Shown here: positions 29,854-59,783 of the stretch, in pieces
Layout of the letters: every line of letters begins with the position of its first letter
Position numbering within the stretch: the stretch's first letter is position 1
From: Alphaproteobacteria bacterium
Lineage (GTDB): Bacteria; Pseudomonadota; Alphaproteobacteria; Bin95
NCBI GenBank assembly: GCA_965205265.1
Contig: CBDBGH010000003.1
Coordinates: 3,744,001-3,808,000, forward strand
Direction of reading: 5' to 3'
Length of the DNA: 64,000 nucleotides
The notes under the pieces: generated by a model
Database searches by the model: none
What the model saw: the letters and a program-made list of their open reading frames with translations, nothing else
Told to the model about the DNA's origin: nothing
Position numbers and translations under genes: made by a program

Positions 29854-30081
29854 CGGGGATGCCGCCAGATAAGCAGTTCGTGCGACTTCTTCACATGCGA
29901 CCCGCCGTTGCGCTCGCGCCGGTTCTCGCCGATGCGCGTATCGCCCTGCCCGAAGGTGTATTGCCATTCCGGCGTCTCGATATTGCAGTCGGAATACCAG
30001 TCGCGGATCGTCGGGCAGTCGTTGTAGGACAGGATGAATCCGGCCCGGTGGCGCAAGAGCAAATCGCGCAACGCCTCATGC
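29850..30081 (-). pseudogene. 3' fragment of split Dam-like (D12 class) N6-adenine methyltransferase
   Basis: HEALRDLL..FILSYND..IRDWY..ELLI; joins in frame with 58996-59783. Confidence 0.9.
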
Positions 30082-30382
30082 GTGAATATCTCAAAAGTAA
30101 AATCCTACAAAATGCTCCGTATAACATATTGATTTATCGTAATAAAATGAACTGGCAGAAACTCGAGAGAAATCTCGTAACCAATCTGAAAGCGGATTCA
30201 TTCCAATCCAGGCGTATCCCCAGCGCAGGCCTGTAGGCACTCGGACGGCAGCCCTTCGGGTCCCGGGGGATGAAAGTTCCCGGCGACCGGCTTCGAAGGC
30301 GGCGAGGATCGGACGCTCCTTTCTGCCCATGCGCCAGTGAACCTTGTCCGTTGCCGTTCAGGAACGAACCGGTTCATCGGCT

Positions 30383-32125
30383 TCATCGCCGGGCATCGAC
30401 ATACTCGACAAGTGCGGATCGGCCGACGATAGCGACGATCCGCACATGCAGTTCGGTCCCTTCCGCGTCGGTCAATTGCAGTTTCTCGCCGGGGGTGAAG
30501 TGAACCGGCTGTTGCCTGCCTTCGTCAATCGCAATGTTCGACGCGTAGAGGTAGGTCCGGTCATGGGCGTCGCGTACGGGATTGAGCCTGCCCTTCAATC
30601 CCGGAACATGGCCGGTGGCCTCCGGAAAGATGACGCTCCCGCCTGCCGGCAAAGCCTCCAGATCGATCGCCAGCGCTCGTTCGCCCGGTATCCAGTCCCG
30701 CTCCGGATGTGCGGCGTATCCTGCTGCGGACGCGAACACGGTCATGGGCAGCCGGGTCGTGTGCAGATCGACTGCCGCTTCGCCTTGTTCGTCCGTGACG
30801 GCCTGCTTCCAGGTGTTGTTCGGAAATAGGAGAAGGAGACCGGCGCCCGGCAAGGGCCGGCCGCCAGACCGCACGGAGATGACGGCGCGAGCGGGGATCC
30901 GCTCCTGTACCGCCGCAGGAATGACAAGCAGCACCTCGGCATCGTCAACGACCGTGTACTCGGGGTACTTCCCGCACAATGCCCAGGTCTCGCGGCGGAT
31001 GATGGGCACGCCGTCGCCGCGGCGCTCCATGTAGTATCGCCTGTCTTCACCGCCCCGGGTTCCTCCGACAGGCATCCGCGCCAATACGGAGGTGAGGGCT
31101 TCATTGCGGGTCGACTGCCGCGACGCCATACTCTCCACCGTCAGGTTGTTCGGCAGGGAACCGGGCGACTGGATTTCCACCCGATCGTCGAACATCGAGA
31201 GACGGATCCTGCTTGCTCTCATGGAGTAGTCGCGATGGACGACGGCGTTGACCAGCGCCTCGAACAGGGCCTTTTCGCTGTACTGGGGAATATCCGAACG
31301 GGCCGGATCCTTTCGCGCCGCGACCCGCATGTTTCTGACAGCGAAGGCAACGGCGCCGGCGATCTGTTCGTTCAGCGGCCCGGCGATCTCCCGGGCATCG
31401 ACTTGACCCGATGCACGGTCTCCGCCGTCGTATCGGGTCGCCGTGATGCAGGCGTGCGGGAGCCATCGTTCCGGACTGGGCGTGCACAACAGCACGCCGG
31501 CGACCGTCGCGCGAAGCGCGCCTGCCTCGTCGTCTGCCAGAAGCGCCAGCTTCCCGAGCGCCGCCTCGGGCTCGGCCGCGCCCTCGGCGCTGAGCAACGG
31601 TTTCCAGAGCGCCTCGGTCAACGTCCGGAAACCGGTTTCCGGCACCGGCTGCTTGTCGAACCACAGGAAACGCGCCTGCGACCGCCGTTGCGTCAGGCGC
31701 AACCGCTCGTCGCTCCCCATGAGCCGCTTCGAGGCGCCCACGCGGACGTAGCATCCGCCGGGGCTCTCATGGACGGAATCGCTCTCCGGGACTTCGGCCA
31801 GCAGCACCAGCCTGCCGTCGGACAATTCCCGGTGATGCGTGCGGATGCGAACGGGCGGCTTGATCGTATCGGTGCTCACCTCCACGAGAAGGGAGTCCAG
31901 ACGGGCGATTTGCGCACGCGACATGCCGATGACGCTGCCGTCGTCGGCAACACCGGCAAGCACCACGCCCCCGGCCGCGTTGGCGAAGGCTGCGATTTCA
32001 TCGGCCCAGTCGCCGCGGGCCGGCCGTCTCGGACGATCCCCGGCGAATTCCACCTGCTTGAATTCCCAGCTGCTGTCTTCGCCCGCCCGCAGCTGGCTTT
32101 CGATGTCCCGGGCGCGGTAGTTCAT
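30383..32125 (-). CDS. AlbA_2 (Schlafen-like) domain + HATPase_c_4 domain protein with beta-rich C-terminal extension
   Basis: GEDSSWEFK, IAAFANAAGG, EALVNAVVHRDY, SPGSLP, RNEAL, MERRGDG. Confidence 0.82.
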   Translation of the reverse strand: MNYRARDIESQLRAGEDSSWEFKQVEFAGDRPRRPARGDWADEIAAFANAAGGVVLAGVADDGSVIGMSRAQIARLDSLLVEVSTDTIKPPVRIRTHHRELSDGRLVLLAEVPESDSVHESPGGCYVRVGASKRLMGSDERLRLTQRRSQARFLWFDKQPVPETGFRTLTEALWKPLLSAEGAAEPEAALGKLALLADDEAGALRATVAGVLLCTPSPERWLPHACITATRYDGGDRASGQVDAREIAGPLNEQIAGAVAFAVRNMRVAARKDPARSDIPQYSEKALFEALVNAVVHRDYSMRASRIRLSMFDDRVEIQSPGSLPNNLTVESMASRQSTRNEALTSVLARMPVGGTRGGEDRRYYMERRGDGVPIIRRETWALCGKYPEYTVVDDAEVLLVIPAAVQERIPARAVISVRSGGRPLPGAGLLLLFPNNTWKQAVTDEQGEAAVDLHTTRLPMTVFASAAGYAAHPERDWIPGERALAIDLEALPAGGSVIFPEATGHVPGLKGRLNPVRDAHDRTYLYASNIAIDEGRQQPVHFTPGEKLQLTDAEGTELHVRIVAIVGRSALVEYVDARR

Positions 32126-32643
32126 GCCCCGGCAATCCCGGCGGCCCTTGTAGCTCGCCGTGTGTGTCGTGGATCGCAGCTGTCCGGCGGTACCGTTTCG
32201 ACCATATGGCGATCGGGCCATTGTCGGATGTCGCGCCGCTCCGGACCCGTGTCGATGCCCTCGCGCAGGCGGGCGCTGGAATAGACGGGGAATGCCCCGG
32301 TTTCTCCAGACGGCTGCTCGCTACCCATCTTTCCGAATAACCGTGCTGGCACCGTCAGCCGACGAAAGCTGCCGTCGTCTTCCCGGTCCGTCATGTCCCC
32401 ATGTCCTCGGCCCTGGCACGTGACGCTGCCGGGTGCAGCGTCCCTGCCGGGCGCTGGCCGTTGCGCTGGCAATTTCCCGACCGCCCCGCACGCCGACGGC
32501 GACCGCTCGCCCGTCACTCCGGTCGGCCGCGACATGCGCCCCGCCGCCAGGAGGGAAAGGCTGGCCGTGAGCGGGGCGGCGGTCGGGTGCCCGGGAGAGG
32601 GCGTTCGTCCGTTTCCCCTCATCGGCACGAAGGAGACGGCACC

Positions 32644-32973
32644 ATGAGCGCAGCGATGGCATTCCCCCGCAACACGGCGGCAACCTTTCTCACCCATTTC
32701 TTCGGACCCGGCCTGGCCGAAGACGACCGCTATGTGGTCGAGCGCTACCGCACGCTCGCGAACGGCGACATTCGGCCCTGCCCGGACGCCGCGCCGAAGG
32801 GCGGCAGGCGCGGCAAGGCCCGGGCGATCACCGCGACCCTGAAGGCGGTCAGGGAGATGCGGCCCGAGCGCAACGAGATCATCATCTGCACCGGCCTCGG
32901 CAGCCGGGGCGGGGTCCAGTACTGGGGTGTCTACGCCATGGGGCTCGGTATCGACCGCCGCCAGAAGGGCTGA
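32644..32973 (+). CDS. Hypothetical protein (leading region)
   Basis: AAGGAG RBS upstream of ATG; 109 aa. Confidence 0.65.
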   Translation: MSAAMAFPRNTAATFLTHFFGPGLAEDDRYVVERYRTLANGDIRPCPDAAPKGGRRGKARAITATLKAVREMRPERNEIIICTGLGSRGGVQYWGVYAMGLGIDRRQKG

Positions 32974-33057
32974 CCGCCCCCTTCCCGGACGTCCGGCCGG
33001 CCCACCGCCGGCGGGGCGTCCGCCTTTCCCCTTGTTCCACGAACCGAGGAGGACGGC

Positions 33058-34308
33058 ATGGCCCATGCCGATCCGGAGATCCGCCGTGCGCGCGTCGCCA
33101 GACGCACCGCCGCGCGCACCGCCCGGGGCCTTTGTCCCCGCTGCGGAGACCGCCCGCCGGCGCCCGAGCGCCGCCTGTGCGCGCCCTGCAACGAGAAACA
33201 GAACGCGGCGGGCCGGGAACGCGACGCCCGCCTGCGGGCCGGCAGGAAACCCCGGCGCGACCCCGAACGGGCAAGGCGCCAGGGGCGCGAGCGCGACCGC
33301 AGGCTCTATGCCGAGAGGAAGGCGACCGGCATCTGCGTCAGGTGCGGCCGGGCCCCGGCACGCCCGGACCGCACGACCTGCGGGCCTTGCGCGGAGAAGC
33401 ATCGCGCGCGCGACCGCGAGCGCGACGCCCGGGCCAGGGCCCGGGGGATACCCTATGGCGGTCGCGACCCGGAAGCCCGGCGCCGGGCCGGACGGGAGCG
33501 CAGCCGCCGGCGCAGCGAGGCCCGCCAGGCCGCCGGGCTCTGTGTGCGCTGCGGCAACGTCCCGCCCGAGGACGGCCGGACCATGTGCGGGCCGTGCCGC
33601 GAGGACAGGCGGCAGGCCAAGAAAGAGCGCCATCACGGTCGCCGCGCCGCCCGCCTCTGCGTCCGGTGCGCGGCGCCCGCGCCGGACGGCAGGGCGTATT
33701 GCCCGTCCTGCGCCGGGATCCGGAGCAGGCGGCGGGACCGGAAGGCGAAGTGGGAAGCCGACCGCCGGCGCTATGCCGAACGGAAGGCCAGGGGCGATTG
33801 CACCAGTTGCGGCAAGCCGGCCCACGGCGCCGCCGAGTGCGCGGCCTGCCGCGACGCCGCCCGCGCCCGCTACGACACCCGCCGGGCCGCCGGGGTCTGC
33901 GTCAAGTGCCGGACCCCCACCTTCGATGGCGCCGTTTACTGCGCGCCCTGCGCCGTCGTCAGGGCCGAGCGCCGCGACCGCGAGGCCGAACACGCCGCCC
34001 GCCGCGACCGCTATGCCGATCGGAGGGCCGGGGGCCGCTGCGTCGCCTGCAACGCGCCCTCGCCGGGCGTGGCGCGTTGCGAGCCCTGTTCGCGCAGGCA
34101 CCGCGAGAGTTCGGGCGCGTTCCGCGGCATCCCGTTCTGGGACCCGCAGTATACGGTGATCGAGATCGCCACCGGGCGCGAGCACGGGCCGTTCGACAGC
34201 GAGGCCGATGTCGCGCTCTGCCTCGTCTTCGAGAAGCTCTTGCGCGACGAGGTCGAGGTGCTGTGCGACGCCAGCCCCATGAGTTCCTACACCGCGCCGG
34301 CCTGGTGA
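33058..34308 (+). CDS. Arg-rich protein with seven tandem CxxC...CxxC zinc-finger repeats
   Basis: GAGGAGG RBS; repeated GxCxxC-x9-11-CxxC units. Confidence 0.8.
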   Translation: MAHADPEIRRARVARRTAARTARGLCPRCGDRPPAPERRLCAPCNEKQNAAGRERDARLRAGRKPRRDPERARRQGRERDRRLYAERKATGICVRCGRAPARPDRTTCGPCAEKHRARDRERDARARARGIPYGGRDPEARRRAGRERSRRRSEARQAAGLCVRCGNVPPEDGRTMCGPCREDRRQAKKERHHGRRAARLCVRCAAPAPDGRAYCPSCAGIRSRRRDRKAKWEADRRRYAERKARGDCTSCGKPAHGAAECAACRDAARARYDTRRAAGVCVKCRTPTFDGAVYCAPCAVVRAERRDREAEHAARRDRYADRRAGGRCVACNAPSPGVARCEPCSRRHRESSGAFRGIPFWDPQYTVIEIATGREHGPFDSEADVALCLVFEKLLRDEVEVLCDASPMSSYTAPAW

Positions 34309-34486
34309 GCCGGCGCGCCTCCGGGTCGGGCGCGGCGGGTGTCTTCCCTGCCGCGCCGCCACCCTGTCTCCGCCGGGGCCGGCGTCCCGGAGTTGAAGGA
34401 GGGCTTTCGCGGGGGCGAGCGCCCGGGAGGGCCGGGGGAGTGGTTTCTCCGGCCGGATGTCCGGGCGCCGTCCAGGGGAGATGCCC

Positions 34487-34630
34487 ATGTCCGAGTTCTT
34501 CCACGACACCGACGCCGATGCGGCAACCGACACCGAACGCGCCGCGCCGGCCTGCGACGAACTGCTGGCCGAGGCCGGTCTCGACAGCCGGGCCATCCGC
34601 GAGGTCCTCGCCGGCCGCGACGCAGAGTGA
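34487..34630 (+). CDS. Small acidic 47-aa protein (not in ORF track)
   Basis: GGGGAG RBS; MSEFFHDTDADAATDTERAAPACDELLAEAGLDSRAIREVLAGRDAE. Confidence 0.5.
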   Translation: MSEFFHDTDADAATDTERAAPACDELLAEAGLDSRAIREVLAGRDAE

Positions 34631-34731
34631 AGGAAAGCGGGGAGAAGATGAGCGGCAGGGGGCCGGGGAGAGGGTTCTCCGGTCCCGGCCGCTCGACCAT
34701 CGTCAGCAACCAGACCTGAAGGAGCATCGCA

Positions 34732-35193
34732 ATGAGCTTCGGAATGAACCGCGTCGAACTGATCGGCCGCCTCGGCGCCGACGTCACCGTCAACCATCTC
34801 GCCTCCGGCGGCCGCGTGGCCAATCTCAGCATCGCCACCGACGAATCCTATCTCGACCGCCAGACCGGCGAGCGGGTCGACCGGACCGAGTGGCACCGGG
34901 TCGTGACCTTCCAGAACGGCCTCATCGACATGCTGGAGCGGCATGCGAAGAAGGGCCGGCTGGTCCACGCCGAGGGCAAGCTCCAGACCCGGCGGTGGAA
35001 GAAGGAGGGCGAGGACTCCGACCGCTTCTCCACCGAGATCCTGATCGTGCCCGGCCACAGGATCCAGTTCCTCGACAAGCCCGCCGGCGCGAACGGGAAC
35101 GGCGCCCAGGCCGGGACCGCCCAGCCGGCGGCGAACGGCGAGGCCATGCCGGCCGACGGCACCGGGGAGGCCGGGGACATCATCCCGTTCTGA
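34732..35193 (+). CDS. ssb: Single-stranded DNA-binding protein
   Basis: NRVELIGRLGAD, TEWHRV, EGKLQTRRW, C-terminal DIIPF. Confidence 0.95.
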   Translation: MSFGMNRVELIGRLGADVTVNHLASGGRVANLSIATDESYLDRQTGERVDRTEWHRVVTFQNGLIDMLERHAKKGRLVHAEGKLQTRRWKKEGEDSDRFSTEILIVPGHRIQFLDKPAGANGNGAQAGTAQPAANGEAMPADGTGEAGDIIPF

Positions 35194-35437
35194 GCCGGTC
35201 ACGCTTCCTATCTCCCAACTCGGGCGGCCGCTGCGCGGTCGCCCCTTTTTTGCTGCCGGTTTCGAGGCTTCTCCCGGTCGGACCATGCGCCCGTGCTTCG
35301 TGCGGAGCGTCCTCCCTCAGCCGGAGGAAATCCGTGAAGCGGCCCGCTCCCGGCCCCGGATCATGCCCCGGAAAGCCCTGCGGGAGCAAGAGGAAGGCAG
35401 GGGCCGGGCAAGCCGGCCCAGGGAGAGGAGGGAGCCG

Positions 35438-35794
35438 ATGGACGCCGTCATCAATCTCAGACACGAGCCGAAGCTGCGCGAGAAGTTCGACCATGCGCAG
35501 GTCGTGAACGGCACCGTGCTGATCGACCGCCGCACGAAGTGGGGCAACCCGTTCAGGATCTCTCCGGCCTGTTCGAGAGAGCAGGCGGTCGCCCGCTACC
35601 GCGCCGACCTCTGGCGGCGCATCCGCGCCGGCGAGATCGAGCTGGAGGCGCTGGCCGCGCTGCATGGCCGCCGCCTCGCATGCTGGTGCGCGCCGCTGCC
35701 CTGTCACGGCCACGGGCTGGCCCGCGCGGCGGCCTGGGCGGCGCAGGTGCTGGCGGAACGCAGCGCCCGCCAGGCGGAGGGGGGCGCATCATGA
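35438..35794 (+). CDS. DUF4326-like protein
   Basis: IDRRTKWGNPF and LACWCAPLPCHG. Confidence 0.85.
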   Translation: MDAVINLRHEPKLREKFDHAQVVNGTVLIDRRTKWGNPFRISPACSREQAVARYRADLWRRIRAGEIELEALAALHGRRLACWCAPLPCHGHGLARAAAWAAQVLAERSARQAEGGAS

Positions 35795-36018
35795 GCAACA
35801 TCGCCTTCCGCCGTATCGCCCCGGACGAATCCCGCATCTACTGCGACGGCGACCATGTCGGCGACATCTACGCGCTCGACGATCCGCTGCGCGAGGGCGC
35901 GCGGTATTTCGTGATCCATCTCGACGAGGATCCGCGCGGCCCCCACCGCGTCCATGACCGCAACCGCATCCGCGAGGCAACCGAGCAGCGGATCCTCTCG
36001 CATCCGTTCCGGAGATGA
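35791..36018 (+). CDS. Hypothetical 75-aa protein
   Basis: ATGA overlap with upstream gene. Confidence 0.6.
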   Translation: MSNIAFRRIAPDESRIYCDGDHVGDIYALDDPLREGARYFVIHLDEDPRGPHRVHDRNRIREATEQRILSHPFRR

Positions 36019-36455
36019 CCGGCCATGGCTGTCAAATTGCGCGCTCCGCTTGCAAGGCAGGCCGACAGGCCCGGGGATGCTCCCGCAGGCCGTGCCGGGC
36101 AGCAGCGCCCATCGGGTCCGTGCAAGGGGAGAGAATTTGCCTGTCTGCGTGCTGTCCCATTGTGCCACACGGGCTCACTGCACCAACCCCGCCTGCGGCG
36201 GGGTCCTCCACTCCGCTCACGCTCCGTTCCGGCCGGGACTCGGAATGAAACGGCGCTGAAGCGCCTAGGCCCGGCGGAATGCGCGACCGTGGCTCCGCGC
36301 TCGCTTCGCTCGCTTGTGCGCCCGCACCACCCGCGCATCCCGCCGGGCCATTCATTCCGGACCCGGTGCTTCCGCTGCGCGCGCGTGACCCAACAGGACA
36401 TCACTTCGGGGCACACCGCCCCGAGCGCTGCAACCCGATCGTCAAGGAGATCGTC

Positions 36456-37388
36456 ATGACCCTCATCGAAAACATCGACACCGTCGAGAGCGACGGACAG
36501 TCCGTCACCGCGACCGTCTGCGACAACGCCGCCCTCTACAGCGCAACACCCGAGCGCGACGAGTTCGACCCCCGCGTCATCTGGGACAAGGACGATGCGC
36601 TGACCGCCGTCGAGGAAGCCTTCCGCATCCTCGGCGAAGGCGTCTGCCCCGACGGCACACAGCTCGCCGACGAGCGCGAACACCTGCTCTGGGGCTTCGT
36701 CAACATGCTTCACGCCCAGACGCAGCGCATCGACCGCAGCGTCGATCGGCTCACCCCCGAACTCCGCGACCTCCAGCGCGACCAGGACGGAACCGAGATC
36801 AGGTCCCGCGAACTCGAACTCGTCACCCACCGCGCGCAGAACCTCGGAGACCGACGCGACGCCTTCGAGACCCTGCGCGATGCGGTGGCCGAACAGTACC
36901 GCGCCGAGACCGGCGACACCTGGCGGCCCCGGCGCGGCAGCCACGTCAGCCAGACCGGCAGGCTGACCAGCGCCGCCATCGACGCCCGCGACTTCATCCG
37001 CGCCCGCAAGGAGGCTGAGACCACGGCGCACCTGCCGCAAGGCACCCTCGTCGCCATCGCAGGCGGCAAGGACATCGCCAACCCCGACGCGGTGATCCGC
37101 ATGCTCGACAGGACCCGCGCTAAGCATGCGGATATGGTGCTCGTCCACGGCGGCGGACCCGGCGTCGAGAGGATCGCCGCGCGCTGGGCCGAACGCAACG
37201 GCGTCCACCAGATCGTCTGCAAGCCCGACTGGGACCGCCACGGACGCGCCGCGCCCTTCCGCCGCAACGACGAATTGCTCAACCTCCTGCCCAGGGGCGT
37301 CATCGCCTTCCCCGGCTCCGGCATCACAGAGAACCTCGTGGACAAGGCAAGGCAGCTCGGTATCCCCGTGATGACGGCCAGTGCATAG
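36456..37388 (+). CDS. DUF2493/YspA SLOG-family protein
   Basis: LVHGGGPG, PDWDRHGRAAPFRRND, AFPGSGIT. Confidence 0.85.
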   Translation: MTLIENIDTVESDGQSVTATVCDNAALYSATPERDEFDPRVIWDKDDALTAVEEAFRILGEGVCPDGTQLADEREHLLWGFVNMLHAQTQRIDRSVDRLTPELRDLQRDQDGTEIRSRELELVTHRAQNLGDRRDAFETLRDAVAEQYRAETGDTWRPRRGSHVSQTGRLTSAAIDARDFIRARKEAETTAHLPQGTLVAIAGGKDIANPDAVIRMLDRTRAKHADMVLVHGGGPGVERIAARWAERNGVHQIVCKPDWDRHGRAAPFRRNDELLNLLPRGVIAFPGSGITENLVDKARQLGIPVMTASA

Positions 37389-38329
37389 GCCGCACCGCAG
37401 CGCGGGCCGCACCGTCGCTCCGGCGGCGGCGCGGTCCGCTTCTTCTTGCGCACACACTTCGCGCGGCAACGCCATCCGCACGGGCGCTTCGCCCTGCCCC
37501 GGACCACGATCGGGGGCCCCGCTCGCGATCGACACCGTGATCGGCATCTCCGGCAGCGCCGTCGGTGCTGGCGACCGCCAGCCCGATCGCCGGCCAAGGC
37601 AGCAGCGCCTTGCGGCTGTCGCCGCCATCGCGCGCTGTCGCCTGCATCGCTCCCCGCACTCCCGCCGATCCTCGTGACGGCGCTCCCGTCGGAACCGCCG
37701 GCACCGCCCCCGGCGCCGCGCTCGACACTTCGTCCCTCCGTGGTGTCGCCACCGCCGCCCGCATCAGGCGCCGCGGAGGCTCCGAGCCGCCGTATTCGCC
37801 GGCGCCGATTCCCCCATCGCTCATACATCGCAAATCGTGCTCAGACGGGCCCGCGCCCGTCTCGGTCCACACACCGGAACGCAGGTCCCCTGCGGGTTGC
37901 GGCATGGGATGACAGGCGCTGCCTGGCACCGCCAGGAGTGGACAGGCGCCGCCAGAATCCTGCCGGCGCAACGCGGATCGAGCGCCACCGATTTGTGTTC
38001 GCCGGATCGTCGTACCGGGGCGCAGTCCAGCGCGCACCTGCCGCCAAAAGCAGTCAGGGTGGTTGCGATTTGCGCCAGGGCGCGTGACCGTGTGTTCGCC
38101 GTGCAGGCTCTCGAAACACGGAAACAACACGCCCCCGGGACCGGCATCCGGGTCGCGGCGGCGCCCTTCAGGGCGTTCGGCAGCGGTGGCCGGCGGGGCG
38201 GATGAAGAAGGGTACGGCGGCCCTGTGGGGCGGACCGGGCCCGGCCGCAAACGGGCCGCCGGCGTGCTGTTTCAGGGCCGGAATTTCATTGCGGCCGGCG
38301 GACAGTTCGATCTGGAAAGGGCAGAAGGG

Positions 38330-38716
38330 ATGGCGGGAAAGGAACGGAAAAATCCCGAGACCGGGAAGAAACCTGCGGAGAACCGGAGCAATGCGCGCCG
38401 GCAGCGCTCGACCCGCTTCTCCGATTCCGAGTGGGACCTGATCCGGCGGGCCGCCGCGCGGCACGGCATGTCCCCCGGCGAACTCGTGCGGTCGAGCGCG
38501 GTCGCCGCTGCCGAAGACCGCCTGGGTGAGCTTCCCCCGGCCACCTTGTCGAAGGGCCACGCCGCGCTCATCGAGGAGATCTACCGCCTCGTCTACGTGA
38601 TGGCGACGCTCGACCGGGAGGAGATGCTCGACGTCGAACGCGAGAAAGAGCTCGACGACCTCGTCGCCGCCGCCCGCAGGAGCATGACGGAGACGATGGG
38701 CGAGGGCCCGGCGTGA
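38330..38716 (+). CDS. RHH relaxosome accessory protein (MobC/MobA-like)
   Basis: RSTRFSDSEWDLIRRAAARHGMSPGELVR. Confidence 0.7.
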   Translation: MAGKERKNPETGKKPAENRSNARRQRSTRFSDSEWDLIRRAAARHGMSPGELVRSSAVAAAEDRLGELPPATLSKGHAALIEEIYRLVYVMATLDREEMLDVEREKELDDLVAAARRSMTETMGEGPA

Positions 38717-51191: not shown

Positions 51192-51317
51192 CATGCCACA
51201 CCCTTGCCCGACCCTGTGGCCCATGCCCAACGGCCTTCGTCCGCAATCAGCGGGCGGGCGGTCTCCGAACCGGCATGCACATTCCGCGCTTCACTTTTGT
51301 CGGTTCGGGTTTCCGCG

Positions 51318-54300
51318 ATGAATCCTCTGGATCGCCTTCTCGAGGCCTACCGGGCCGCCGCCATCAGCGAACGCGACAAGGGCACCGCGTTCGAAAAGCT
51401 GGTCGCGGCCTGGCTGGTCACCGACCCGGTGCAGGCGAGGCGCTTCGAACGGGTGGACTCCTGGTCCGAATGGGCGCGCCGTCGGGAAGAGGACCGCAGC
51501 GACACGGGGATCGATCTGGTCGCGACACGGCATGACGGCGGTCTTGCGGCAATCCAGTGCAAGTTCTTCGCTTCGGACCGGCGGATCCGGAAGGACGACA
51601 TCGACAGCTTCATCTCGGCATCCGCGAAATCCCCGTTCGCGGAGCGGACGATCGTCGAGACCACCGACGTGGCTTGGAGTCCGAACGCCGAGACGATGCT
51701 GCGCGGCCAGACGATCCCGACCACCCGGATCGGGCTGCGCGATCTTCGGGACAGCGAGGTGGACTGGTCGGCGTTTGCGGCGACCGGGGAGATTGCGCGG
51801 CCCGAGCCGAAGGCCTTGCGTCCGGACCAGGTCGAGGCGCTGGAGGCGGTGCGGGACGGGCTGGACGGGGCCGACCGGGGCAAGCTGATCATGGCCTGCG
51901 GTACGGGAAAGACCCTGACCGGGCTGCGGATTGCCGAGGACACAGCGGGCTCCGGCGGCCATGTGCTGCTTCTGGTGCCCTCGCTGGCGCTGATGGCGCA
52001 GACGGTGCGCGAATGGTGCGCCGATGCGGTTCTGCCGTTGACGGCTTTCGCCGTCTGTTCCGATGCTCAAGTGGGCAAGCGGCGGCGCAGCGCGAATGAT
52101 GTTGCCGAGCTTGAAGTGAGCGATCTCGCCCTTCCGGCGACGACGGATGCGGGATTGCTGGCGCGGGCGGCCGCCGCATCGGACGACGGCGCGATGCGGG
52201 TCGTCTTCGCGACCTACCAGTCGATATCGGTCATTGCTGCCGCACAGGCGAAGCACGGTCTTCCGGAGTTCGACCTGATCGTCTGCGACGAGGCCCACCG
52301 CACGACGGGGGTGACGTTTGCCGGCGAGGACGAGTCGAATTTCGTGAAGGTGCATGACAACGAGGTGATCCGGGGCCGCAAGCGGCTCTACATGACGGCG
52401 ACGCCGCGCATCTACGGCGAAAACGCGAAATCGAAGGCGCGCGATGCGGAGGCCGTTCTCGCCTCGATGGACGATCCGGACCTCTACGGGGAGGTGCTGT
52501 TTCATCACGGGTTCGCCCGGGCGGTCGAGAGCGGCATCCTGACCGACTACCGCGTGATCGTTCTGGTCATGGACGAGGGGCAGGTCAGCGCCGCGGTGCA
52601 GAAGCGCCTCGCCGACGAGAACACCGAGCTTGTGCTCGACGATGCGACGAAGATCGTCGGTTGCTGGAAGGCGCTGTCCAAAACGGGGCTCGCGGGAACG
52701 GCCGCGGACGATCCCGAACCGATGCGCCGCGCCCTTGCATTCTGCCGGAGCATCAACAGCTCGAAGCTCGTTCGAAACGAGTTCGAGCAGGTGGTCGTCG
52801 AGTTCCAGGCCGAGATTGGCGACGACGAAGGAAACGGCGTCTTCTGCGAAGTCCGTCATGTGGACGGCACCTACAACGCCCGCGAGCGGGGTCAGCGGCT
52901 CGACTGGCTCAAGGAAGACGCGGGCGCCAATGTCTGCCGGATTCTGAGCAACGCGCGATGCCTCACCGAGGGCGTCGACGTGCCGGCCCTCGACGCGATC
53001 CTGTTCCTGCATCCACGCAACAGCCAGATCGACGTCGTGCAGGCGGTGGGCCGGGTAATGCGTCAGGCGCCTGGCAAACGGATGGGGTACGTCATTCTTC
53101 CGGTCGGCGTACCGCCGGGCGTTCCCGCGGATGTGGCGCTCGGCGACAACGAGAAGTACCGGGTGGTCTGGCAGATTCTGAACGCGCTCCGCGCCCATGA
53201 CGAAGGGCTGGGTGCGGTGATCAACCAGGGCGGTCTCGGACAGGATGTCAGCGGCCGCATCGCGATCGTCGACGGCCGGTCTCCGCGTGCCGGTGCCGAA
53301 CTCGCTGCGGTCACGGCGACGGTAGATGACCTGCCGAGGCGCCCCGCGCCGCCCAGGCCGGGTATAGGACGAGGAGGGTCGGGCGACTCCGAAGGCAGGG
53401 GCGGGCCGCAGGAGCCTCTGCCATTGGTGATTGACGAGTTCTCGCGCGCCGTGATGGCGAAGATCGTCGAGAAGTGCGGTACGCGCGACTACTGGGAAGA
53501 CTGGGCGAAAGATGTCGCCGAGATTGCGGAACGCCACGTCACGCGCATATCCAGCCTTGTGCAGCAACCCGAAAGCGACGCCCGGTCGTTCTTCCAGGAT
53601 TTCCTTCTGGAGCTCCGCGACGATCTCAACGAGTCGATCACGGAACACGACGCCATCGAGATGCTGGCGCAGCATCTGATCACGCGGCCCGTGTTCGACG
53701 CGCTGTTCGAGGGGTCTCCCTTTGTCGACAGGAACCCGGTCTCGGCCGCGATGACGGAGGTCCTGTCCGTGATCGACGAGGTGCAGATCAAGCGCGAAGC
53801 GAAGGCGCTTGAAGGCTTCTACGCCTCGGTGCGCCGGCGGGCGGCGGGGATCACCGATCCGCAGGCGCGGCAGAAGCTGATCGTGGAACTCTACGACAAG
53901 TTCTTCCGAAGCGCGTTTCCGCGCACGACGCAGATGCTCGGCATCGTCTACACGCCGGTCGAGATCGTGGACTTCATCATCCGCTCGGTGAACGAGGCCT
54001 TGCAGGAGGAGTTCGGCCAGACGATCGGCTCCGAAGGCGTCCACATCATCGACCCCTTCGTCGGAACCGGCACCTTCATCACCCGGCTGCTGCAATCGGG
54101 GCTGATCGCGCCCGAAGACCTGGAGCGCAAGTACCGCGGGGAAATCCACGCAAACGACATCGTGCTTCTCGCCTACTACATTGCCGCCATCAACATCGAG
54201 TCCGTTTTCTTCCATTCGGTCGCGAACCGCGACGACTACCTGCCCTATGCCGGCATCTGCCTGACCGATACCTTCGCCCTGCACGAAGGCGACGACGAGC

Positions 54301-56216
54301 TGTCCTTCTACATGAAAGACAACACGGATCGGCGCGAGCGGCAGAAAGCGACCGACATCCGGGTCATTATCGGCAACCCGCCCTATTCGGCAGGGCAGAA
54401 AAGCGAAAACGACAACGCGAAGAATGTCGCGTATGCATGGCTGGACCAGCGAATTCGGGACACCTATGCGGAACGCTCTGCCGCGGGCCTGAAGCAGAAT
54501 CTCTACGACAGCTACATCCGCGCGATCCGCTGGGGCAGCGATCGGCTCGGGAAGGCCGGGGTGATGGCGTACATTACCGGCAGCGCCTGGATCGAGCGCG
54601 CATTTGCCGACGGTCTGCGGAAGTGTCTGGCCCGCGAGTTCGCTCGCGTTCACGTCTTTCACCTTCGTGGCGACATTCGCAAGAACATGCTGTCCGGCGG
54701 ACGCGCGGGTGAGGGTGAAAACGTGTTCGGACAGGGAAGCATGACGGGGGTCGCGATCACGGTCTTCGTCAAGAACCCGGACGCCCCGGAACAGGGCCGC
54801 ATCCTGTTCCATGACATCGGTGACGACCTGGACCGGAAGCAGAAGCTCGAGACCGTCAAGCGGCTCGGTAGCATCCGTGGAATCGAGCAAGCCCGCGGAT
54901 GGCGGCGGATCACGCCCGACGAACATGGCGACTGGCTGGACCAGCGTGACCGCAGCTTCGAGGCGTATCCGAAGATCGGGGACAAGCAGGACAGGAACGG
55001 TCGCGTTCTGTTCGACAGCTACTCCCTTGGCGTGGTTACCAATCGGGACGCCTGGTGCATCAATCCGTCCCCGACCGCACTGGCCGAGAACATCGAGTCG
55101 ACGATCTCGTTCTATAGCGGCGAACTGGGGCGGTTGAGAGCGGCCACCGAGACGGGGAAGCTCACGGGAGAGGCGCTTCCCGGGATTGACAGCTTCGTCA
55201 ATTCAGACCCCACCAGGATCAGCTGGACTCGTTCTCTCAAGCAGGATCTCCGGAAAGGGAAAGAACTCCGACAAGGCGATGGCACGTTTGTCCCCTGCCT
55301 CTACCGCCCCTTCACCAAGCAATGGCAATTCTTCAGCCGCCGGCTGAATGAGATGGTCTATCAGATGCCCCGCATCTTCCCGAATGCCGATCTGCCCAAC
55401 CGGGTCATCGCGGTCACGGGCAAGGGCGGGCGGTCCGGATTTTCGGCGCTGATGATGGATGCGTTGCCGAACCTTCACACAATCGACACCGGCCAGTGTT
55501 TTCCGTTCTGGATCTACGAAAGAAGCGAGGACGCGGAAGCGGACCTTCTCGGGGAGCGAATTGCCGGATACAGGCGGCTCGACGCCATCACCGTCTACGC
55601 GCTCGAATACTTCCGTGACGCCCATCCGTCCGAGTCCGTGAGCCGGGAGGACATCTTCCATTACATCTACGGGCTGCTGCATTCCGAGGACTATCGCCAC
55701 CGTTTTGCCGCCAACCTTGTCAAGGAACTGCCGCGCATCCCCTGCGTGAAGCCGGTGAAGGACTATCGGTCCTTCCGCGATGCGGGGAAGCGCTTGGCGC
55801 ACCTGCATGTCGGTTACGAGACCGTGGATCCCTGGCCGGCCACGATCGACACCGCCGGCGAACTGCTGCTGGCCGATGCCGAGGATGCCTTTCGGGTCAC
55901 GAAAATGCGCCATCCGGGATCGGGCAAGAGCAAGGATCGGTCGACGGTGATCTACAATTCCCGCATCACCATCCGCGACATCCCCGAGGCGGCATGGGAA
56001 TACGTCGTCAACGGCAAGCCCGCGCTCGCCTGGGTCATGGAACGCCAGTGTGTCAGGACCGACAAGGCCAGCGGGGTCGTCAGCGACGCCAACCGCTACG
56101 CGACCGAGACCGTCGGTGATCCGCGATATCCGCTTGACCTCTTGCTGCGGGTCATCACCGTCAGCCTGGAGACCATGAAGATCGTGCGCTCCCTTCCCGA
56201 ACTGGCAATCGAATAA
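51318..56216 (+). CDS. Type ISP restriction-modification enzyme (Mrr nuclease-helicase-N6 MTase-TRD; LlaGI/LlaBIII-like)
   Basis: DTGID..AIQCK, MACGTGKT, DEAHR, VYTPVE, DPFVGTG, GNPPY. Confidence 0.93.
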   Translation: MNPLDRLLEAYRAAAISERDKGTAFEKLVAAWLVTDPVQARRFERVDSWSEWARRREEDRSDTGIDLVATRHDGGLAAIQCKFFASDRRIRKDDIDSFISASAKSPFAERTIVETTDVAWSPNAETMLRGQTIPTTRIGLRDLRDSEVDWSAFAATGEIARPEPKALRPDQVEALEAVRDGLDGADRGKLIMACGTGKTLTGLRIAEDTAGSGGHVLLLVPSLALMAQTVREWCADAVLPLTAFAVCSDAQVGKRRRSANDVAELEVSDLALPATTDAGLLARAAAASDDGAMRVVFATYQSISVIAAAQAKHGLPEFDLIVCDEAHRTTGVTFAGEDESNFVKVHDNEVIRGRKRLYMTATPRIYGENAKSKARDAEAVLASMDDPDLYGEVLFHHGFARAVESGILTDYRVIVLVMDEGQVSAAVQKRLADENTELVLDDATKIVGCWKALSKTGLAGTAADDPEPMRRALAFCRSINSSKLVRNEFEQVVVEFQAEIGDDEGNGVFCEVRHVDGTYNARERGQRLDWLKEDAGANVCRILSNARCLTEGVDVPALDAILFLHPRNSQIDVVQAVGRVMRQAPGKRMGYVILPVGVPPGVPADVALGDNEKYRVVWQILNALRAHDEGLGAVINQGGLGQDVSGRIAIVDGRSPRAGAELAAVTATVDDLPRRPAPPRPGIGRGGSGDSEGRGGPQEPLPLVIDEFSRAVMAKIVEKCGTRDYWEDWAKDVAEIAERHVTRISSLVQQPESDARSFFQDFLLELRDDLNESITEHDAIEMLAQHLITRPVFDALFEGSPFVDRNPVSAAMTEVLSVIDEVQIKREAKALEGFYASVRRRAAGITDPQARQKLIVELYDKFFRSAFPRTTQMLGIVYTPVEIVDFIIRSVNEALQEEFGQTIGSEGVHIIDPFVGTGTFITRLLQSGLIAPEDLERKYRGEIHANDIVLLAYYIAAINIESVFFHSVANRDDYLPYAGICLTDTFALHEGDDELSFYMKDNTDRRERQKATDIRVIIGNPPYSAGQKSENDNAKNVAYAWLDQRIRDTYAERSAAGLKQNLYDSYIRAIRWGSDRLGKAGVMAYITGSAWIERAFADGLRKCLAREFARVHVFHLRGDIRKNMLSGGRAGEGENVFGQGSMTGVAITVFVKNPDAPEQGRILFHDIGDDLDRKQKLETVKRLGSIRGIEQARGWRRITPDEHGDWLDQRDRSFEAYPKIGDKQDRNGRVLFDSYSLGVVTNRDAWCINPSPTALAENIESTISFYSGELGRLRAATETGKLTGEALPGIDSFVNSDPTRISWTRSLKQDLRKGKELRQGDGTFVPCLYRPFTKQWQFFSRRLNEMVYQMPRIFPNADLPNRVIAVTGKGGRSGFSALMMDALPNLHTIDTGQCFPFWIYERSEDAEADLLGERIAGYRRLDAITVYALEYFRDAHPSESVSREDIFHYIYGLLHSEDYRHRFAANLVKELPRIPCVKPVKDYRSFRDAGKRLAHLHVGYETVDPWPATIDTAGELLLADAEDAFRVTKMRHPGSGKSKDRSTVIYNSRITIRDIPEAAWEYVVNGKPALAWVMERQCVRTDKASGVVSDANRYATETVGDPRYPLDLLLRVITVSLETMKIVRSLPELAIE

Positions 56217-56286
56217 ACCGGACAGGGCGGTCGCAGTGAGTGGCCCGGACAACTGCCGCCGGTCCAGATGAGGCGATACCGCCGAG

Positions 56287-57459
56287 CTAAAGGATATCGG
56301 CCGCGATGCTGTCGGCGACCCTTACCGCCGCCTCGTGCATGGAGTCGCGCGCCAGATGGGCGTATTTCGCCGTCGTCTCGACATGCGCGTGGCCGAGCAG
56401 CCGGCCGATCACGGGCAGGCTCTCGCCCAGCGCCAGCGCGCGCGAGGCGAAGGAATGCCGGCAGTCGTGAAGCCGGACATCCTCGAGCCTCGCCCGTTCG
56501 CGCACCAGGCACCACTGACGGTCGATGAAGCCCAGCCGCTCGCCCGGCTTCCGGCCCTGGATCACCCAGGGATTGCCCTCGGCGCGCGGGATGCCCGCGA
56601 GCACCCGAACCGCCTCGGGCGACAGCGGCACTGTGCGCGCACCGGTCTTGGTGTCTTCAAGGTTCAGCTCCATGGCTTCGAGGTCCACGTCCCGCCAGCG
56701 CAGCGTCACGATCTCGTTCTTGCGGCACCCGGTCAGCATCAGCAGCCGGATCGCCGCCGCGGCATGCGCCGAGACGGCGCCGTCGGCCTCCGCCTCGTCG
56801 AGTGCACGCCCGAGCCGGCGGAACTCGGCGGCGGTGAGAAACCGCTCGCGCGCCTGCTGGCGGTATTTCACCGTGCCCCGGCAGGGATTGCTCCCCTCGG
56901 GCGTCAATCCCCAGGATTCGGCCATGTTGAACATGCGCGACAGCAGGTCCAGCGTCCGGTTGGCCTGCACCGGCGTCGCCCGCATCGCATGGTGCAGGTC
57001 GCGCACATGCTCGCGCCGCACGCTGCCGAGCGGCAGCTTCCCGAGCGTCGGCACGATGTGCCCGTTCGCCATGCGCCGGTAGGCCTTCACGGTGTTGGGC
57101 TTGCAATGCTGCTCGGCATATTCCTCGAGATACCGCGCGGCGAGCGCCGCGACCGTCGGCCCGTCCGGGTGCTTCGCCGCCAGCGGCTCCGGCACCGGGT
57201 CCTCGCCCGCCTTGATGCGCGCGATGATCAGCGCCGCGCGGCGGCGAGCCTCCTCGGGCGTGATGACGCCGTGCCGCCCGATGGTCAGCCGCTTCGCCGC
57301 GCCGCGCGCGCGGGTCTGCACGATGTAGTGCTTCGAGCCGGAGGGATACACCCGGACGCCGAAGCCCGGCTGTCCAGAGTCCCAGAACACCGTGTCCCTG
57401 TCGACCTCGAGCGCTTCGACCGTGCGCCGCGATATCGACCGTCTCCCGAGCTTCGCCAT
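56287..57459 (-). CDS. Tyrosine recombinase/integrase 2
   Basis: Arm-binding N-terminus; TGCRK, KTG, HDCRH, LGH, KY. Confidence 0.93.
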   Translation of the reverse strand: MAKLGRRSISRRTVEALEVDRDTVFWDSGQPGFGVRVYPSGSKHYIVQTRARGAAKRLTIGRHGVITPEEARRRAALIIARIKAGEDPVPEPLAAKHPDGPTVAALAARYLEEYAEQHCKPNTVKAYRRMANGHIVPTLGKLPLGSVRREHVRDLHHAMRATPVQANRTLDLLSRMFNMAESWGLTPEGSNPCRGTVKYRQQARERFLTAAEFRRLGRALDEAEADGAVSAHAAAAIRLLMLTGCRKNEIVTLRWRDVDLEAMELNLEDTKTGARTVPLSPEAVRVLAGIPRAEGNPWVIQGRKPGERLGFIDRQWCLVRERARLEDVRLHDCRHSFASRALALGESLPVIGRLLGHAHVETTAKYAHLARDSMHEAAVRVADSIAADIL

Positions 57460-57477
57460 CGCGACCTTCCTCTCGCC

Positions 57478-58653
57478 TCAGGCGGCGTCCGGTTCGAGGA
57501 TGTCGGCGCCGATGCTGCCGCCGACCTTGGCCGCCGACGCCTTCTCGGTGTCGCGCGCCAGATGCGCGTAACGCGCGGTCGTCGCGACCTGCCCGTGGCC
57601 CATCAGCTTGCCGATCATCGAAAGGCTCTCGCCGAGCGCCAGCGCCCGGCTCGCCCAGCTGTGCCGAAGATCGTGGATGCGGACGTCCTTCAGCCCGGCC
57701 TTCGCGCGAAGGCGCTTCCAGACTGCATCCATGTTGACCAGATGGGCGTCCCCCTTCCTGCCCGCGATCACCCATGGGCTGTCGCCGTCGCGAGGAATCC
57801 GGTCGAGCACCGCCTCGACCGCGGGCGTCAGCGGAACGATGCGCGGTCCCGTCTTGGCATCGCGCAATCTCAACCCGCGCGCCGCCCGGTCCACATCGTC
57901 CCACCGGAGCCCCATGATCTCACCCTTGCGGCATCCGGTCAGCATCAGCAGGCGAAGCGCCGCTACCGCTGCCGGCCGCGCCGAGCCGGCCGCCTCCGCC
58001 TCCTTCAGCACCCGGCCCAGTTCCCGGTATTCGTCGGGCGTGAGGAAACGCTCCCGCCTGACCTCCCGGTACCGGCGCACCGCCCGGCACGGGTTCCGTC
58101 CCGGCGGGACCAGCTCCAGCGCCTCGGCCATGTTGTACATCCGCGACAGTATCCTCACCGACAGGTTCGCCGCCTGCGGCGTCCTGCGCAGTCCGTAATG
58201 GAACTTCGCAACGCGCGACCGGTCGACCTCGCCTATGGGCAGGCCGCCGAGTTCCGGCAGGATGAGCCTCTCGATCGCGTAGCGGTAGCTCGCCTGCGTC
58301 TTCTCCCGGAGGTTGACCTTCACATGGCCTTCCATGTAGCGCGCCGCCAGACCCGCCACGGTGAGTTCCGGCGCGGCCGGCGCCGGGAACGGCTCCAGCC
58401 CCCGCCGGATGCGGTCGATGACGCCGGCGGCCCGCTTGCGGGCCTCGTCGGGCGTCAGGTCGCCGTGGCGCCCGAGCGTGACGCGCTTCGGCCCGGTCGG
58501 CCCGCGCGTCTGGACGACGAAGACCTTGCGGCCGGTTGGATGGACCCGGACGCCGAACCCCTTGAGGTCCCGGTCCCAGAACACGGCGTCCTTGCCGGCG
58601 ACCGCGAGGGCGTCGACGGCGCGCTTGGTGAGCTTCGGGGCAGAATCGGGCAT
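57478..58653 (-). CDS. Tyrosine recombinase/integrase 1
   Basis: Arm-binding N-terminus; TGCRK, KTG, HDLRH, MGH, RY. Confidence 0.93.
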   Translation of the reverse strand: MPDSAPKLTKRAVDALAVAGKDAVFWDRDLKGFGVRVHPTGRKVFVVQTRGPTGPKRVTLGRHGDLTPDEARKRAAGVIDRIRRGLEPFPAPAAPELTVAGLAARYMEGHVKVNLREKTQASYRYAIERLILPELGGLPIGEVDRSRVAKFHYGLRRTPQAANLSVRILSRMYNMAEALELVPPGRNPCRAVRRYREVRRERFLTPDEYRELGRVLKEAEAAGSARPAAVAALRLLMLTGCRKGEIMGLRWDDVDRAARGLRLRDAKTGPRIVPLTPAVEAVLDRIPRDGDSPWVIAGRKGDAHLVNMDAVWKRLRAKAGLKDVRIHDLRHSWASRALALGESLSMIGKLMGHGQVATTARYAHLARDTEKASAAKVGGSIGADILEPDAA

Positions 58654-58995
58654 CGTGGTCTCCGGCGGATCGGGGAAGCGTTCGTTCAAGGGGTGACGAT
58701 GATGAGGACGACGAGGCCAACTCCGTGGTTTGCCGGGCTTCGCCCGACTTCGCTCTGTGCCATCGTCCCCTCCATCACCGCGTGACCGAACGCTTTCCCG
58801 CGGCGGGTTTTCGGTCCTGGAAGTGGATGCGGAATTCGTAATCAATCCGCAAGCGACCGGACCCGTATCCCGGCGCATTGGAGTGCATCCCGGGCAGGGA
58901 TGCAAGACCAAAATGGCGGTACAAATAGCTGTTACACAATGATAAATCGTATCTCAGCGCACTCTGGCGCAGGTCTGGCGCAATGGCGCTACATA

Positions 58996-59783
58996 TCATG
59001 CCGGAAGCCGTCATGGTGAATCGGGAAGTTCCGGTGCGGATACATCCCCACGAAAGTCTTGCCCTCTTCGAGGTAGTAGGGCGGGTCGCAGTAGAGGAAG
59101 TCCGCCGCGTGATGCGGTATCGACTCCTCGAAGCCCGCGCACTCCACGGTCAGCCCCGGCGCGCGAAACGCCTCGACCTTCTCCACCGTCTTCCCGTAAC
59201 GATCCGGTGCCAGATACACATCGGACGGCCAGCCGAGGAAATGCGGCCCGTAGGAGGTGTTCGAGTTGAAGTAGTAGTGAGCGGCGAGGTCGTAGCGGTT
59301 CAACGCCTCCCCGCGCTTCCAGTGCGCTTCCAGCCGGGCTTTGACGGCGGCGAAGGTGGGCCGATCCGGCGTGAAGGCCCGGAGCCGCTTCGCCAGTGCG
59401 GCCGGGCGCTGCAACTGCTCTTGCCAGTAGGCGCAGAGAATGTCGAAGACATCGTAGGCCGCGACCGGCAGTTCGAGTTCGCGGGCAAGAGCGATCTCGA
59501 CGGAGCCGCCGCCCATGAAAGGCGACGCGACGCGCTCCACGACATCGGGCATGAGTTCCACGACCATGCCGACGGCGAGGCTCTTGCCGCCCGCGTAGCG
59601 CAGCGGCGAGGCCAGATACCGCTTGTAGTCCAGCTTGCCGGTGCTGCGCAGCCGGTCGAGGAAACGCGCCTTGCGGAGGTGCAGGGGATGGCGGCCGTCC
59701 TCCATCCATCCCTCATTCAGCAGGCGGCGGGCGAGGGCTTCCGCGCTTAGGTCGGTCGGCGGAATGACCGTTTGCAGCGCCAT
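58996..59783 (-). pseudogene. 5' fragment of split Dam-like N6-adenine methyltransferase
   Basis: PLRYAGGKS, SPFMGGGS, YCDPPY; truncated at FRH by the insertion. Confidence 0.92.

Follow-up and report, generated by a model that had tools for sequence, protein, structure and literature searches.

The stretch of DNA considered here (the window) comprises 64,000 nucleotides of an alphaproteobacterial genome of the Bin95 lineage (assembly GCA_965205265.1, contig CBDBGH010000003.1, positions 3,744,001 to 3,808,000 of the forward strand). It contains a 28,914-bp insertion, probably an integrative mobilizable element (IME), within a gene for a D12-class N6-adenine DNA methylase. The methylase gene is itself carried by an IS1595-family transposon. 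Three mobile layers are thereby nested within one another, a CRISPR cassette in an IME and the IME in a transposon-borne methylase cassette, and the arrangement is internally controlled; occupied and empty sites occur in one genome. The features that define the insertion are the following.

29052..29059: left copy of the 8-bp target-site duplication TATCGTTA
29060..30081, minus strand: left part of the interrupted transposon, with the inverted repeat GGGGATTATATAC, the partner gene and the C-terminal piece of the methylase
29086..29853, minus strand: 255-aa conserved methylase partner, a putative restriction endonuclease
29850..30075, minus strand: C-terminal 75 codons and stop of the D12-class N6-adenine DNA methylase (from the join and the homologue alignment)
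30076..30081: left TCATGC, the identical part of the predicted crossover core, int-distal junction (BLASTN)
30082..58995: integrative mobilizable element, 28,914 bp, missing from two otherwise identical transposon copies
58996..59001: right TCATGC, int-proximal junction
58996..59783, minus strand: N-terminal 262 codons of the D12-class methylase (Pfam, homologue alignment)
59785..60750, minus strand: IS1595-family DDE transposase, 321 aa (Pfam, NF033547)
60803..60823: right terminal inverted repeat (to 60815) and right copy of the 8-bp duplication (60816-60823)

How precisely are the ends of the element defined? The preliminary description of this DNA had placed them at two TCATGC repeats in which the methylase halves end, and had joined the halves into a 1,014-nt open reading frame (ORF) of 337 amino acids that excision would restore. 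The hexamers lie where they had been put, on the left at 30076-30081 (distal to the integrase genes) and on the right at 58996-59001 (proximal to them), with 28,914 bp of inserted DNA between them at 30082-58995. A scripted join of 59783-58996 to 30075-29850 gives 1,014 nt, that is 337 codons and a stop, and agrees letter for letter with P0004, whose gene is uninterrupted at C3:2078536-2079546 and C3:2717297-2718307 (contig C3 of the same genome). When the window was compared with its own genome by BLASTN, 29059-30081 and 58996-60820 were contiguous at C3:2077500-2080340 and C3:2716262-2719101, and the two alignments at these empty sites overlapped by exactly 6 bp. The rebuilt protein is also contiguous with its relatives: in all 12 full-length methylase homologues compared, which come from other sources, the last residue of the N half (n) is directly followed by the first residue of the C half (n + 1). 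A lone 6-bp repeat might be due to chance, but the exact rebuilding of a paralogue from the same genome cannot, and the insertion boundaries are thus confirmed. The claims that the element splits the methylase and that its excision would restore the frame hold at the level of sequence and are borne out by the empty sites. Defined attL and attR ends together with a matching empty attB, here at two sites of the same genome, are among the marks of an IME. Contigs of three public sequencing runs, from up to three studies, span the right junction, and contigs with intact-methylase-like sequence from public runs reach the same junction point.

The methylase matches PF02086, a DPPY motif is visible in its translation, and the PADLOC model MTase_II aligns with it over 296 of 309 positions (E 6e-103). 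Together with its 255-aa partner it forms the cargo of a 2,836-bp IS1595-family transposon that is present in four copies in the genome. Of these, two are uninterrupted and match each other at 100% identity along the full 2,836 bp, and in the other two the element sits at one and the same point; the left transposon part in the window is 100% identical to C3:2080340-2079318 and C3:2719101-2718079. The transposon unit starts with GGGGATTATATAC and closes with its reverse complement. An 8-bp target duplication, different for each copy, accompanies the shared terminal inverted repeats in all three copies for which both ends are available, and in the window this duplication is TATCGTTA, at 29052-29059 and 60816-60823. 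Duplication of 8 bp is the rule for the IS1595 family. The transposase matches PF12762 (DDE_Tnp_IS1595, E 7e-38), the zinc ribbon PF12760 and NF033547 (196.8 bits). All three transposon genes lie on one strand in the order transposase, methylase and partner; the methylase ATG is 2 bp past the transposase stop, and the GTG start of the partner overlaps the methylase stop (GTGA, 29853-29850). A promoter and terminator scan of 28900-30600 gave one promoter-like site and no terminator, a result not above that for shuffled sequence. A sample of 400 genomes from the class yielded no full-length relative of the transposon unit, and the methylase was not found in any of 36 further genomes belonging to the family. 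Loose contig ends in two public runs (X16 and X17) exit the right end of the transposon (60815-60822) into at least two flanks that are absent from the assembly, besides flanks that are present in it, and the positions of the transposon seem to vary between strains or within the population.

What is the function of the 255-aa partner? It has 685 homologues, and all of those that bear a name are called hypothetical. Among 120 listed partner homologues, 37 lie on a contig equal in size to that of a listed methylase homologue, some of these contigs being only 2-5 kb long; the two genes accordingly travel as a pair. The partner had been taken for an intact restriction endonuclease. It is a conserved neighbour of the methylase but matched no nuclease model in Pfam, NCBIfam or PADLOC, and nothing was found in the PDB below E 0.5. 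A stored homologue in a protein-language-model Atlas matched unnamed clusters in 29 of 30 cases and an R.HinP1I cluster in one, which is a lead only. The partner is best described as a putative restriction enzyme.

The element and its cargo comprise the following features.

30386..32221, minus strand: AlbA_2 (Schlafen-type) and HATPase_c_4 protein, 612 aa (Pfam)
34732..35193, plus strand: single-stranded DNA-binding protein (TIGR00621, 98.6 bits)
35285..35794, plus strand: DUF4326 protein (Pfam)
36279..37388, plus strand: YAcAr (SLOG-family) domain protein (Pfam)
38063..38716, plus strand: NikA-like relaxosome accessory candidate, weak (Pfam E 2e-4, below cut-off)
38571..39440, minus strand: 3' fragment of a second relaxase gene (38829-39332 repeats 46393-46898)
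39419..42991, plus strand: cas9 (TIGR01865, Pfam; the match begins at residue 45)
42943..43920, plus strand: cas1 (Pfam)
43880..44299, plus strand: cas2 (Pfam)
44371..46310, plus strand: CRISPR array, 29 repeats of 36 nt with 30-nt spacers
46416..49367, minus strand: TrwC/MobF relaxase-helicase, 983 aa (profile matches)
50488..50745, plus strand: FitA-like ribbon-helix-helix antitoxin (Pfam E 1.4e-7)
50742..51191, plus strand: PIN-domain (VapC-like) toxin (Pfam PIN E 6.5e-13)
51204..56216, plus strand: Type ISP single-polypeptide restriction-modification enzyme, 1,670 aa (Pfam; PADLOC 2,092 bits)
56287..57459, minus strand: tyrosine integrase IntB, 390 aa (profile matches)
57478..58653, minus strand: tyrosine integrase IntA, 391 aa (profile matches)
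58654..58995: int-proximal attachment-site arm, non-coding, conserved in the related genome G037 described below

IntA and IntB are tandem paralogues, about 53% identical, and both have Phage_integrase, Arm-DNA-bind_3 and SAM-like domains. The IntA start lies 342 bp from the right end of the element, which places a recombinase at the element end. Families for coupling proteins, VirB4 and the mating pore had no match among the element ORFs scanned, and no oriT was located. An element with its own relaxase and no coupling or mating-pore genes should depend on another conjugative element for its transfer. Across the genome there are nine TrwC matches and four matches to type IV coupling proteins, the latter all outside the element and three of them beside other relaxases; the VirB4 family PF03135 has no match in the genome, which does not show that a helper is absent. 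The region 32536-38740 has counterparts with 80-89% identity in six or more further places on C3 (near 2.35, 3.19, 3.43, 3.49, 3.55 and 5.36 Mb), and these repeated homologous stretches, taken with the nine TrwC matches, point to a genome crowded with related integrative elements. As to the cargo, the Type ISP enzyme has all five of its Pfam domains in order (Mrr_cat_2, ResIII, ISP_coupler, N6_Mtase and Type_ISP_C). The antitoxin and toxin genes (50488-51191) overlap by a few bases and are masked by longer spurious ORFs on both strands.

In the CRISPR-Cas locus, Pfam and NCBIfam models confirm Cas9, Cas1 and Cas2, and the set of cas9, cas1, cas2 and an array, with neither csn2 nor cas4, is that of type II-C; there is no further gene between the end of cas2 at 44299 and the start of the array at 44371. 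The true start of cas9 is probably near 39550, since the TIGR01865 match begins only at residue 45. A candidate anti-repeat lies at 39454-39470 (16 of 17 bases match), and a search of 28000-62000 with Rfam gave no family at gathering score. On either side of the Cas9 cassette lies a direct repeat of some 0.5 kb, formed by a relaxase 3' end (38829-39332 and 46393-46898, 83-92% identity), and at C3:3423125-3428661 a single relaxase gene takes the place of fragment, cassette and full gene. The spacers of the window array matched no phage, and among plasmids they gave only two chance-level matches (E 0.01). Spacer 4 (44571-44600) shares 28 of 30 bases with C3:3410504-3410531. It was considered as a self-target and rejected, for the matched DNA is a spacer of a different CRISPR array, one with a 36-nt repeat that adjoins genes for a Cas4-Cas1 fusion, RAMP and GSU0053/0054. 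A second window spacer matches 22 of 23 bases in that same array, and the two CRISPR systems seem to have sampled the same invader.

The second copy of the element lies in the fourth transposon copy, from C3:5432433 (C3:5432433-5463552), with the same right junction. Outside the CRISPR array the two copies show no mismatch over 30960-44000 and 47000-60820 of the window, and they must on this account be very recent copies. Their arrays differ: the window has 28 spacers and the other copy 48 (C3:5446900-5450200), 19 being common to both. At the cas2-proximal end, four spacers are unique to the window and seven to the other copy; the longer array also holds one duplicated spacer. The window array is irregular at 45693-45877, with repeat intervals of 13 nt and 101 nt and one degenerate repeat, where the other copy is regular. 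The divergence of the arrays suggests either recent spacer uptake in place or array recombination. Otherwise identical Cas9 loci with diverged arrays offer, as a lead, a natural record of recent spacer uptake.

Do related integrases also enter methylase genes? A scan of one genome per species yielded 39 loci with IntA relatives. A tandem integrase pair is present at 19 of them (five partial or frameshifted), and at none does a methylase or partner homologue lie within 4 kb. The check that the preliminary description had proposed thus came out against a preference for methylases, and the nearest relatives are found in dnaE2-like and trwC genes. The closest, with an IntA 96% identical, is in an alphaproteobacterial metagenome-assembled genome (MAG), G037. 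At one locus there (L015), the same right end is joined to a dnaE2-like gene after codons for Thr-Phe-Arg-His. G037 also has an identical left end (617 bp, 100%) joined to the remainder of that gene, and on the homologue of the present genome the positions matched by the two dnaE2-like halves are directly adjoining. At another locus of G037 (L044), a trwC relaxase gene runs as far as Cys-Phe-Arg-His and is followed there by a remnant of the right end. Two further loci with an IntA that is 83% identical, L017 and L018 of one deltaproteobacterial MAG, adjoin trwC fragments whose ends fall at the same conserved motif. G037 shares only 30077-38740 and 55914-59007 of the window, and the middle of its element contains insertion sequences and chromosomal-looking genes. 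It has no methylase match with the present query and no Cas9 cassette, which marks Cas9 as variable cargo. Integrase pairs 83% identical occur in MAGs labelled Acidobacteriota, Deltaproteobacteria and Alphaproteobacteria, and relatives at 62-65% in Nitrospinota and others.

The int-proximal flanks of the five target loci are set out below.

Methylase (window): GGC TTC CGG CAT GA
dnaE2-like gene (G037, L015): ACC TTC CGC CAT GA
trwC (G037, L044): TGC TTC CGG CAT GA
trwC (L017): ACC TTC TGG CAC GG
trwC (L018): ACC TTC CAC CAC GG

Common to the five is the sequence TTC-NNN-CAY-G (codons Phe-x-His) and not a type of gene. A motif shared across unrelated genes argues that the integrase recognises a short sequence and not methylase genes as such. 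In the present genome the 12-mer CTTCCGSCATGA occurs 20 times: at the two empty methylase sites, at the two occupied junctions, three times in the partner gene and 13 times elsewhere. The 14-bp core CTTCCGGCATGAGG recurs without mismatch inside the partner gene (29270-29281, minus strand), where it also codes for Phe-Arg-His-Glu, and this second site is empty in each of the three assembled copies. The trwC genes of the genome, nine in number, all code for Phe-Arg-His at the corresponding position and are either CAC-coded or at least one base off the methylase core; the element's own relaxase is two bases off. The other tandem-integrase pairs of the genome (near 0.44, 3.28 and 5.32 Mb) have no adjoining trwC fragment. 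Metagenome scans with each element end gave no match for either pattern, and viral contigs searched with IntA gave one distant match (30% identity). Runs with small query shares are mostly labelled sponge metagenome, a label from which no habitat is claimed.

The two ends of each insertion are informative about the crossover. The window has TTC-CG-GCATGA at its integrase-side junction and TTC-AC-GCATGA at the far one, and the corresponding pair in G037 is TTC-CGC-CATGA and TTC-CGG-CATGT. In both insertions the integrase-side junction has the target's version and the far junction another version. The bases lying between TTC and CATG vary between the junctions of one insertion, and also between elements whose adjacent 617 bp are identical, and they are therefore placed within the exchanged region. 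TCATGC would accordingly be the part shared by attP and attB of a crossover region of some 7-8 bp, and not a duplication made by the insertion. The pattern fits ordinary tyrosine recombination with a non-identical overlap, followed by replication. What emerges as a lead is a pair of tyrosine recombinases with TTC-NNN-CAYG as its recognition motif and a tolerance of heterology in the crossover region.

From the boundaries, gene content, copy structure and target motif described above, we infer the following course of events, which as a whole we hold with good though not complete confidence. IntA and IntB would act as the recombinases and insert the element by site-specific recombination into a short core, TTC-NNN-CATGA, which happens to lie in the D12-class methylase gene of an IS1595-family transposon. 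The element, classed as an IME with a TrwC relaxase, would be mobilized in trans by another conjugative element. Its cargo appears defensive or stabilising, with the type II-C CRISPR-Cas9 system, the Type ISP enzyme, the AlbA_2/HATPase protein and the VapBC-like pair. The methylase would be no dedicated target, as relatives use the same motif in trwC and dnaE2-like genes. Precise excision would restore the methylase gene and would not be expected to act as a switch, nor the insertion to have a phenotype.

Several observations weigh against this account or limit its reach. The 13 and three unoccupied CTTCCGSCATGA sites mean that the motif alone does not explain the choice of site, and the target rule is based on six junction loci in three genomes. 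No excisionase (HTH_17 or Xis-type) was matched among 24 small or unassigned ORFs. No circle junction was seen among the displayed loose contig ends of four runs, but assemblies drop rare forms and are uninformative on excision. The left junction of the second copy and the matching transposon end are missing, as contig C3 ends inside that copy; the two copies may represent one integration, duplicated by transposition or homologous recombination, and not two events. Finally, if the assembly merges strains, some cells may have fewer intact transposon copies or none, a point raised by the extra transposon flanks in X17.

How did the second copy arise? It could have come about by three routes that are not distinguishable here: re-integration by the integrases, transposition of the interrupted transposon, or conversion of an empty copy through the identical arms. 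The last two would not involve the integrase and compete with the account given above only on the origin of the two copies. That the 31.7-kb interrupted transposon moved, or that an empty copy was converted through its identical arms of 1.0 kb and 1.8 kb, has little short of an even chance. In its favour are the absence of any mismatch between the copies over the regions compared, the intact state of the transposase gene and both inverted repeats, and the description of the IS1595-type mechanism as possibly replicative in the relevant part of a review (PMC5704250). Nothing decisive stands against it; the far transposon end, which would carry the 8-bp duplication, is missing from the assembly.

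A broader reading that combines these observations is possible, though we put it forward tentatively and consider it, taken in all its parts, more doubtful than the integrase-free origin of the second copy. The element would belong to a family of tandem-integrase IMEs whose canonical site is the Phe-Arg-His codons of MOBF (TrwC) relaxase genes. It would be a defence-laden parasite that knocks out rival relaxases, its own relaxase allele differing at the site, and its insertions into the methylase and dnaE2 would have used secondary sites that resemble the canonical one. Nesting in an intact IS1595 transposon would add a second mobility, in the form of a 31.7-kb composite. Movement of this composite would account for two copies that are identical save for arrays in which leader-end spacers were gained in place. 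A possible preference for the relaxase genes of competing elements is a further lead; three of the four junction loci outside this genome are in trwC, and they come from only two MAGs.

Might the methylase instead be the dedicated primary attachment site, with the dnaE2 and trwC insertions as exceptions? Both element copies are in the methylase although 16 other sites with the 12-mer are free, and this speaks for such a view. The two copies are identical outside their arrays, however, and may go back to one event. In G037, which gave no methylase match with this query, the element sits in dnaE2 and trwC; three of the four other junction loci (L044, L017 and L018, the fourth being L015 in dnaE2) are in trwC, and the methylase is absent from all 36 other genomes of the family. 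A dedicated methylase site is therefore improbable, and insertion at a short motif is the reading that is kept here.

The preliminary description had gone further, proposing that integration disarms a restriction-modification (R-M) system through loss of methylation and uncoupling of the nuclease, and that excision would re-arm it on an unmethylated chromosome, which could penalise loss of the element or act as an epigenetic switch. The gene is indeed split and exactly restorable, and methylase and partner form a conserved pair. The overlap of the methylase stop with the partner start indicates that this copy of the partner has probably lost its translational coupling, so that the claimed uncoupling may be correct for this copy, but the intact copies still supply the partner. 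The claim that methylation is removed does not hold for the genome as assembled, given the two intact, 100% identical copies of methylase and partner on the same contig. With two intact identical transposons, methylation should persist and excision would meet no unmethylated chromosome; the same intact copies speak against re-arming, and the supply of the gene product should persist where a loss penalty or epigenetic switch would have it cease. The element moreover bears its own VapBC-like toxin-antitoxin pair, a conventional stabiliser; its close relatives sit in unrelated genes, the 39 related integrase loci include none with a methylase nearby, and the partner matches no nuclease model. A switch by gene disruption has two sides, the loss of the cell's supply of the product on insertion and the return of the gene on precise excision. 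The second is present as far as the sequence goes, whereas the first is lacking, two intact copies being left. In active lysogeny (comK, the sigK skin element and spsM), an element likewise lies in a gene and its precise excision restores the frame; there the interrupted gene exists in one copy only and development sets the time of excision, unlike the present case, in which identical intact copies of the gene remain. The switch is thus very improbable, and the insertion probably changes little for the cell. Where a methylase gene is multi-copy, no epigenetic or addiction switch follows from the splitting of one copy.

That a transposase produced TCATGC as a genuine target-site duplication, the element being a large transposon, is extremely unlikely: a short perfect direct repeat does flank the insert, but 30082-58995 contains no DDE transposase in Pfam and NCBIfam scans, no terminal inverted repeats join the element ends, the five target loci share a motif of 11-12 bp where a transposase would give unrelated duplications, and the two G037 junction cores are non-identical.

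How does the element compare with known systems? The portion of an IME review that deals with integration and gene content describes IMEs with R-M cargo, tandem tyrosine recombinases and sites inside genes of other mobile elements, gives traG and oriT of integrative conjugative elements (ICEs) as integration targets, and mentions secondary sites for NBU1 and SGI1 (PMC5704250). The present element resembles these IMEs in its end recombinase, its own relaxase, the lack of mating-pore genes, its defence cargo and its target in a gene of a mobile element. It differs in its hosts, as the IMEs within conserved ICE genes in that portion of the review are from Firmicutes, whereas here Proteobacteria-type MAGs are involved (PMC5704250). 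It also differs in its effect, in that most IMEs with a single tyrosine recombinase are described there as avoiding disruption of the target, whereas here a pair of tyrosine recombinases disrupts it (PMC5704250). The gene hit is a transposon-borne methylase in the window and trwC or dnaE2 in relatives. Two adjacent tyrosine recombinase genes are also found in MTnPi1-3, IMEs of Prevotella intermedia; the MTnPi pair is described as distantly related, in contrast to the equal-length paralogues of about 53% identity seen here, and the distinction from MTnPi is drawn from that description (PMC5704250).

Strand-biased circularizing integrative elements (SE elements), GInts and Tn554 likewise combine two tyrosine recombinases with target specificity, and SE elements and Tn554 carry over a 6-bp fingerprint: the integrase-proximal end holds the central bases of the target and the other end those of the previous site (PMC10214605, in its account of these groups). 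The junction cores of the window and of G037 differ as such carry-over predicts, and ordinary segregation of a heteroduplex predicts the same. In the account of the same source, SE elements and Tn554 have one ordinary and one large recombinase together with Tfp/Srap or TnpC, and are non-mobilizable (PMC10214605). The element in the window has recombinases of 390-391 aa and a relaxase; there is no further gene between or beside IntA and IntB, and an accessory protein like Tfp, Srap or TnpC was not recognised in sequence scans.

The closest parallels to the outer layer are transposon-like R-M units, in which, according to the part of the report that describes them, methylase and partner also lie between imperfect inverted repeats with an 8-bp duplication; the present unit differs in having a complete IS1595 transposase inside and in occurring in four copies (PMC2853133). 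A narrow search of the literature gave no paper on an IME inside an IS1595-borne methylase, which is no proof of absence from print. Siguier et al. reportedly described IS1595-family members with passenger genes in 2009, and the XerT recombinase of the Helicobacter pylori elements TnPZ/ICEHptfs is said to use a 7-bp target motif. As in those XerT elements (PMC2731543, PMC4234485), a tyrosine recombinase of intermediate, short-motif specificity leads here to insertions in varied genes, although TnPZ/ICEHptfs are self-transmissible with a single recombinase, unlike the present element with its tandem pair. Taken together, this is a precisely delimited, nested IME of a known general kind, and the proposed functional switch is not supported.

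Beyond the transposon, the last 270-280 bases of the window (63723-64000) recur at four other places on C3 with 99% identity and are probably the end of another insertion sequence.

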